DNA of 64,000 nt, taken from assembly GCA_964016885.1 (NCBI GenBank), contig OZ024742.1:366296001-366360000 (forward strand). The letters run 5' to 3'. The position numbers were made by a program, and so were the translations under genes. The notes beneath the pieces were generated by a model, which did no database searches, was not told where the DNA came from, and saw only the letters and a list, made by a program, of their open reading frames with translations. Below, piece by piece: positions 47,204 to 47,560 of this stretch. The stretch is from Eledone cirrhosa. Its lineage: Eukaryota. Position 1 is the stretch's first letter, and every line of letters begins with the position of its first letter.

Positions 47204-47560
47204 AAAGAAAAAGGGATGAAATCGAAAATGCAACTGAAGTCTTATTTTTTAAAAAAATATATATATTTATTTGGTTCCTTTACCGGTTTCGCAGTTCTTC
47301 TGCTTTTCAAAAGGTGAGTTGAGATGGAGGGTCTGTGGTTTTTCTCTCAGATGTGAGAAAAACCACAGACCCTCCATCTCAACTCACCTTTTGAAAAGCA
47401 GAAGAACTGCGAAACCGGTAAAGGAACCAAATAAATATATATATTTTTAAAAAAAATAAGACTCCAGTTGCATTTTCGATTTCATCCCTTTTTCTTTATA
47501 CTTCCACTCGTGTAGGACACCTCGGTTATTTTTCATTTTGTAAAAAAAACCTCACTTTCT
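47204..47560 (+). mobile_element. PLE family E fold-back insertion
   Basis: ~145-bp near-perfect arms at 47204-47349 and 47352-47499, plus tail. Confidence 0.85.
47387..47424 (+). ncRNA. 38-nt minimal hammerhead, U3-A8 variant (mirror at 47277-47314, - strand)
   Basis: CCTT TTGAAAA GCAG-AAGAA-CTGC GAAA CCGG TA AAGG. Confidence 0.85.

Follow-up and report, generated by a model that had tools for sequence, protein, structure and literature searches.

A fold-back insertion with a hammerhead motif on each strand

The window, by which we mean the whole 64,000-nt stretch of Eledone cirrhosa DNA that was analysed (contig OZ024742.1, positions 366,296,001 to 366,360,000), contains a fold-back insertion at 47201-47568 whose inverted arms each carry the same short hammerhead motif. 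A descriptor scan of both window strands placed this motif at 47387-47424 (+) and 47277-47314 (-) and identified it as a type I hammerhead of 38 nt whose core has a U3-A8 pair. The features, with signed positions counted from the predicted cut, are:

47201..47568: entire fold-back insertion, derived from the 5' end/pLTR of a Penelope-like element (PLE), flanked by (TA)n tracts, without an ORF and without the TATA/CCAAT region
47348..47568, + strand: right arm, -73 to about +147; starts at the inferred transcription start and carries a 68-nt tail
47201..47349, - strand: left inverted arm, about -71 to +79, without the tail
47501..47568, + strand: tail, in one arm alone, between the family's fixed 3' ends at +79 and about +147
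47387-47424, + strand: type I hammerhead, predicted cut after 47420
47387-90/47421-24, + strand: helix I, CCUU/AAGG
47391-97, + strand: core UUGAAAA (U3-A8)
47398-47410, + strand: helix II, GCAG/CUGC, 4 bp with a 5-nt loop
47411-14, + strand: GAAA
47414-19, + strand: palindrome ACCGGU; a GUA triplet precedes the predicted cut
47277-47314, - strand: identical hammerhead on the left arm, its cut predicted to fall between 47281 and 47280
26538..26581, - strand: older-subfamily hammerhead with a 7-bp helix I and the same core and palindrome, in a decayed pLTR fragment at about 26480-26627

An earlier note, made from the letters alone, had proposed a 38-nt minimal U3-A8 hammerhead at 47277..47424. 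The scan located all of its parts (helices, core, GAAA, palindrome and GUA), and motif anatomy predicts a cut at the same place as the note did, after 47420. Both copies have the core of the minimal, PLE-type type I hammerhead, namely a Watson-Crick 3-8 pair (U3-A8), GAAA and GUA, together with helix I and a helix II closed by a G10.1-C11.1 pair; ACCGGU supplies a palindromic helix III that permits dimers. The Rfam covariance models gave no hammerhead match to the motif, either at the gathering score or at E<=10. The strict motif pattern had 15,108 matches in the 3.0-Gb genome and the reversed-pattern control had none, indicating that the motif is not a chance occurrence.

The family had also been called unrelated to another hammerhead in the window. 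A BLAST search of the 47201-47568 element against the window found no match to the CUGAAGA hammerhead hairpin at 1008-1258, and the two families are therefore distinct. That second fold-back carries canonical C3-G8 hammerheads at 1056-1121 (-) and 1144-1209 (+), with a long helix II and an AU-rich palindrome, and a piece related to it lies at 54750-54890 (85%). Units of a 40-bp tandem repeat at 27936-28387 hold UUGAAAA and a GAAA-palindrome word; helices I and II were not evident there in the scan, and these hammerhead-like words are probably chance. Near-perfect inverted repeats or hairpins also occur at 4027-5126, 19562-20795, 36712-36860 and 46217-47160, with further ones at 50126-50243, 54666-54844 and 55108-55193; they are possibly inverted insertions of other PLE families. 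A 62-bp tandem array occupies 55550-64000 (136 copies, 94% matches) and continues past the window end.

The arms of the insertion match the pLTR of an intact element (L073, described below) at 99% and 98% identity, and they fold back on each other: 47201-47500 is 96.7% self-complementary, giving a 149-bp hairpin. ORF1 and ORF2 had no tblastn match in the window. A bacterial promoter scan, a type of scan not applicable to this host, returned no promoter-like site. Contigs from four of six sequencing runs cover just 47462-47560, outside the ribozyme. A read-through RNA is predicted to form one hairpin of -238.6 kcal/mol that occludes both motifs. Because the promoter region is absent and the read-through RNA is predicted to fold into this single hairpin, the window copy is likely inactive.

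The hairpin had been described as placing a ribozyme on each strand. Motifs are indeed present on both DNA strands, but this arrangement is a by-product of the inverted, 5'-truncated insertion that is typical of PLEs. The intact motifs in both arms might suggest a functional bidirectional ribozyme cassette that has been under selection at this place. We give that idea almost no credence: hammerheads on opposite strands are unable to dimerise in cis, the promoter region is missing, the hairpin occludes both motifs, and inverted truncated twins are common in our arm sample and described as standard for PLEs (PMC8557442).

The carrier element

Eight stretches around neighbouring matches were fetched, and one of them (L032) contained a frame encoding a reverse transcriptase (RT) and a GIY-YIG domain between two pLTR copies, with RVT_1 and GIY-YIG Pfam matches above cut-off. 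The last 140 residues of this frame were used as a query to pick loci by the GIY-YIG domain, and a hammerhead lay within 1.5 kb downstream on the same strand in 21 of 30. All 15 fetched long-ORF loci have a hammerhead downstream of the ORFs; it is present in both direct pLTRs at four of them, and several have an inverted copy at the 5' end. The intact layout is pLTR(HHR) - ORF1 (409 aa) - overlapping ORF2 (775 aa) - 3' UTR - pLTR(HHR). ORF2 consists of the RT, a CX4CX2C linker and GIY-YIG, with a DKG motif and a CCHH motif whose two Cys lie inside GIY..YIG and whose two His lie downstream in the translation. The two hammerheads of L073 are 4.7 kb apart and, counted from the cut, the TATA box of this element is at -102 and its ORF1 ATG at +169.

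The RT with a C-terminal GIY-YIG and CCHH, the direct and inverted hammerhead-bearing pLTRs and the one-sided tail are the characters of an EN+ Penelope-like element. A CX2-5CX2C linker between RT and EN (here CX4CX2C) and (TA)n targeting characterise Neptune and Nematis, and the element would be classed as Neptune/Nematis-type by linker and motif features; no named PLE reference was among the 120 homologues listed by the homologue search. The resemblance to the Neptune and Nematis EN+ PLEs described by Craig et al. (2021, PMC8557442) extends over the RT, the linker, GIY-YIG with CCHH, the DKG motif, (TA)n targets, tandem and inverted insertions, a tail at one end and an ORF1 that overlaps ORF2, whereas the tail is ~68 nt here and 30-40 there.

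ORF1 overlaps ORF2 in the -1 frame, with an in-frame U-UUU-UUA slippery heptamer (L073:732-4195). The overlap is found likewise in L032, L069-L080, L082 and L083, and the junction 20-mer in 15 of 16 loci. No strong hairpin was predicted downstream of the heptamer (-8.7 kcal/mol). A programmed ORF1/ORF2 frameshift seems likely, and a frameshifted ORF1 in PLEs is noted in the legend to Fig. 1 of Craig et al. (PMC8557442). Fragments resembling other PLE families adjoin the insertions or sit inside them (L031:260-1911, L031:5530-5928, L032:1357-2049), and one alone of these gave a weak GIY-YIG match, below cut-off.

U3-A8 minimal hammerheads in PLE pLTRs are known, having been published in 2014, a context that the earlier note had missed; what is new is this family. 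Cervera and de la Pena (2014, PMC4209133) reported about 1,300 matches in Schistosoma mansoni Cercyon pLTRs, and described pairs on opposite strands, forms whose helix III is small and palindromic, and dimers of low activity. Our family resembles Cercyon in its type I architecture, U3-A8 pair, short helix I, dimer palindrome, pLTR location and thousands of dispersed and opposite-strand copies, but differs in host and element, in its 2-nt loop III and 4-bp helix II, and in that G10.1 follows A9 without an additional base. At the cut site the base is A17 here, whereas the two U3-A8 rows of the alignment in that paper have U17 and G17. The Marsupenaeus japonicus row of the same alignment shares the 4-bp helix II, the CG loop III and an A at position 17, but has a canonical C3-G8 core. 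Neither this family nor U3·A17 was the subject of any paper found in a literature search on U3-A8, C3U/G8A rescue and cephalopod PLE hammerheads; the activity of U3-A8 or U3/A17 variants may already be described by Lunse et al. (2017) or by Przybilski and Hammann (2007), and further related literature includes PMC6765202, PMC6155905 and PMC12602865.

Helix conservation across subfamilies

From two copies, the earlier note had read the change in helix I (CCUU/AAGG in the fold-back, UUUACUU/AAGUAAA at 26538-26581) as compensatory, the core, GAAA, CCGG palindrome and GUA as fixed, and the whole as a sign of structural selection. Within the 4-bp helix I common to both copies one pair alone is indeed exchanged (C-G for A-U); the rest of the difference is an extension of the helix. 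The core and palindrome are the same in both, but the 26538 copy has a broken helix II (UCGU/CUGU), which had been missed: this stem has a U·U closing pair, two pairs and then U·C, and is not formed in the predicted fold. This copy is homologous to the window fold-back (73% over 174 nt). Two copies alone cannot show selection, but past selection is supported by the sister PLE families considered below.

To describe the main family we used the 94 of 125 arms that span the motif, the other 31 having been dropped as truncated or too divergent. The fourth pair of helix I is C-G in 48 arms, A·G in 45 and A·A in one, and helix I is just 3 bp long in about half of the sample. Since A·G is found in 45 of 94 arms, the C-G/A-U change is real but passed through an abundant mismatch. 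The C-G form is the younger (1.1% divergence vs 3.4%, against a reference that is itself C-G-type) and occurs at 14 of 15 long-ORF loci. The A-U form corresponds to older subfamilies (140 matches) with helix I UAACUU/AAGUUA, UGACUU/AAGUCA or UUUACUU/AAGUAAA.

Sister families yielded 1,191 matches and the control none, with the core kept and N7 left free in the pattern. A related ORF2 end (35-65% identity) lies upstream on the same strand at 5 of 30 sister-family loci. Both sides of helices I and II vary in these families, helix I reading GCAA/UUGU or UAAU/AUUG, and one family (10 rows) has almost no helix I.

Covariation was assessed on all 60 sister and older-subfamily rows, six of 30 strict-pattern rows and the two window copies, 65 rows being distinct after removal of duplicates. 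The patterns fixed the core and forced some of the changes, and the outcome is not an R-scape result. Paired cells make up 65.9% of the total vs 44.1% after shuffling, and the covariation score is 0.43 vs 0.14 for shuffled rows and <=0.17 for slid controls, a comparison of 65 related, pattern-selected rows that is not a significance test. Pairs with two-sided change show no excess in these rows (10 vs 9.7 shuffled). The first pair of helix II, 10.1-11.1, is unpaired in 54 of 65 rows, mostly as U·U in older families; with this pair open so often and one family nearly without helix I, a large part of the lineage differs from the consensus ribozyme. The core of the young family is barely more conserved than its flanks (0.85% vs 1.4% at A/T sites). 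Taken together, the alignments support a putative minimal dimer-type U3-A8 hammerhead under past structural selection.

Two other candidate forms were set aside. An ancestral C3-G8 subfamily was rejected because it has too few members: C3-G8 with the same palindrome had 14 matches vs 8 in the control, and about six of the 14 are family members by their flanks. A shorter helix II (670 matches) mostly represents a 3-nt loop deletion in the main family, which we read as slippage and not as a separate form.

Insertion ends and predicted cleavage

The 3' ends of 30 of 30 arms lie at +79 (11 arms) or +145..148 (19 arms), adjoining (TA)n. For the 5' ends, 126 arms having 150 nt or more of sequence upstream were recovered from 100 of the 12,008 anchor matches, namely the first ones listed. 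Among these listed matches, 64 arms end at -80..-60, 11 at -59..-3, 4 at -2..+3 and 15 at +4..+24, while 32 are longer. Their main peak, -73..-67, is ~30 nt below the TATA box; the insertion ends, taken by themselves, would place the transcription start there. Of the arms among the matches listed that are truncated within 80 nt of the cut, 64 of 94 stop at this presumed start with the ribozyme intact, which suggests that uncleaved RNA is the main template.

Short copies this numerous, with fixed ends, might be thought to form an independently replicating retrozyme or SINE family instead of being truncated products of an autonomous PLE, and PLE pLTRs have been reported as a source of retrozymes (bioRxiv 10.64898/2026.07.22.740005). 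We consider this very unlikely. The arms are 98-99% identical to the pLTR of the intact element, without its TATA box, and the window contains an inverted pair alone, with no head-to-tail array of the short unit; the tandem head-to-tail units, each with a canonical hammerhead, that mark non-LTR retrozymes are not found at the locus.

A footprint of cleavage was sought with matched patterns for arms that lose similarity at the cut, 6 nt downstream of it and 7 nt upstream of it, the last with a slightly different anchor. They returned 154, 88 and 101 arms, respectively. Among the first 30 classified in each set, 26, 25 and 11 were true ends, corresponding to ~133, 73 and 37 genome-wide; unambiguous ends numbered 12, 4 and 4, corresponding to ~62, 12 and 13. 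The excess of insertion ends at the cut is 2-5-fold, comprises ~1% of copies, and is inflated by microhomology of the post-cut AA with (TA)n. RT stalling at helix I could be another source of it, and as a trace of cleavage the excess is suggestive only. The density of ends also steps up across the cut, with 19 arms ending in the 25 nt downstream vs 11 in the 59 nt upstream (nominal p 0.0002). We did not accept this step as evidence, since the two arms of a hairpin are not independent observations and the sequence downstream of the cut is palindromic and rich in A and T.

Fold prediction indicates that a monomer forms helices I and II, while helix III has a pair probability of 0.0; in the homodimer, six intermolecular helix III pairs are predicted at 0.92-1.0, in line with published minimal hammerheads of PLEs. 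Pair probabilities for helices I and II are 0.70-0.83 in the isolated 38-mer, and helix I falls to just 0.04 in the 220-nt arm. A U3·A17 pair is predicted at 0.56 in the monomer and 0.46 in the dimer. A17 is nearly fixed, the 235 non-A matches in the genome being mostly scattered point changes plus a small U17 family. A trap formed by C3-G17 pairing has been proposed to underlie the NUH rule (PMC3884650). Since U3·A17 pairing would be analogous to that trap and A17 is nearly fixed, we expect ribozyme activity in this family to be low.

We weighed the possibility that the motif is a catalytically dead relic, a hammerhead-like sequence kept for protein binding, palindrome dimerisation or a promoter or leader constraint, of which no copy cleaves. 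Several amplified families have a broken helix II closing pair and a helix I that is short or absent, U3 and A17 are predicted to pair at 0.46-0.56, an end at the cut is seen in just ~1% of copies, and an anole PLE still inserted when its hammerhead was mutated (PMC11167929). However, the conserved positions are the catalytic ones, with N7 free and U3/A8 paired (letters that the search patterns fixed), the best helices are in the youngest subfamily (1.1% vs 3.4% divergence, the reference being of that same type), and more ends fall at the cut than at either of the neighbouring control sites. On balance a dead relic appears improbable.

The reading that we prefer, with a probability of about 0.87, is that the motif is the pLTR hammerhead of an abundant PLE, predicted to cleave weakly and as a dimer only, and that the window copy is a likely inactive fold-back from reverse-transcribed uncleaved RNA. 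Pol II would initiate ~30 nt below the TATA box, and the RT/EN protein would nick (TA)n and prime cDNA at either of two internal sites 3' of the ribozyme, as has been shown in vitro for two internal RT start sites of an anole PLE (PMC11167929). RNA starting in the pLTR would then give a cDNA of just 150-220 nt reaching the RNA 5' end, often with an inverted twin, which would account for the thousands of short hammerhead-bearing hairpins. Two same-sense hammerheads, in pLTRs 4.7 kb apart or on two RNAs, would pair through ACCGGU to make helix III and be cut after GUA at low efficiency, probably with the assistance of protein; U3-A17 pairing, by extending helix I, would damp cleavage further.

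For comparison, in the Poseidon element PAc of Anolis (Frangieh et al. 2024, PMC11167929) two internal RT starts likewise define the tail and the template is predominantly uncleaved RNA; its hammerhead depends on protein. Its core is C3-G8 and not U3-A8, its ribozyme overlaps the ORF start whereas ours is 169 nt upstream of the ORF1 ATG, and no RNA reads ending at the cut were reported for PAc, in contrast to the small excess of genomic ends here. The family offers a test bed for what PLE hammerheads do: intact, near-identical full-length elements are available, the subfamilies form a graded series in which helices I and II are lost and regained, and ~15,000 insertion ends point to uncleaved RNA as the main template with a possible small cleaved fraction.

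A more speculative proposal, which we think rather unlikely, is that the combination of U3-A8 with A17 acts as a built-in brake. U3·A17 would mimic the C3-G17 trap, so that most RNA stays uncleaved for reverse transcription, while a small fraction cleaves in vivo and is recorded by insertions starting at the cut. If this were true, PLE hammerhead activity would have left a footprint in the genome, namely the surplus of insertions that begin precisely at the cut.

A separate small U3-A8 family has a 5-bp helix I, a G-C-closed helix II and either U17 (two copies) or G17 (one copy); its copies lie at G000:C1:62876446-62876505, C1:124600051-124600110 and C3:193842643-193842702. By hand count, ~17 of the 100 listed upstream-end matches (for example L340, L350 and L351) have a 3-4-nt duplication within the palindrome. 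In these, helix III would have 3 bp and a loop of 3-4 nt, making such copies potentially monomer-competent ribozymes.
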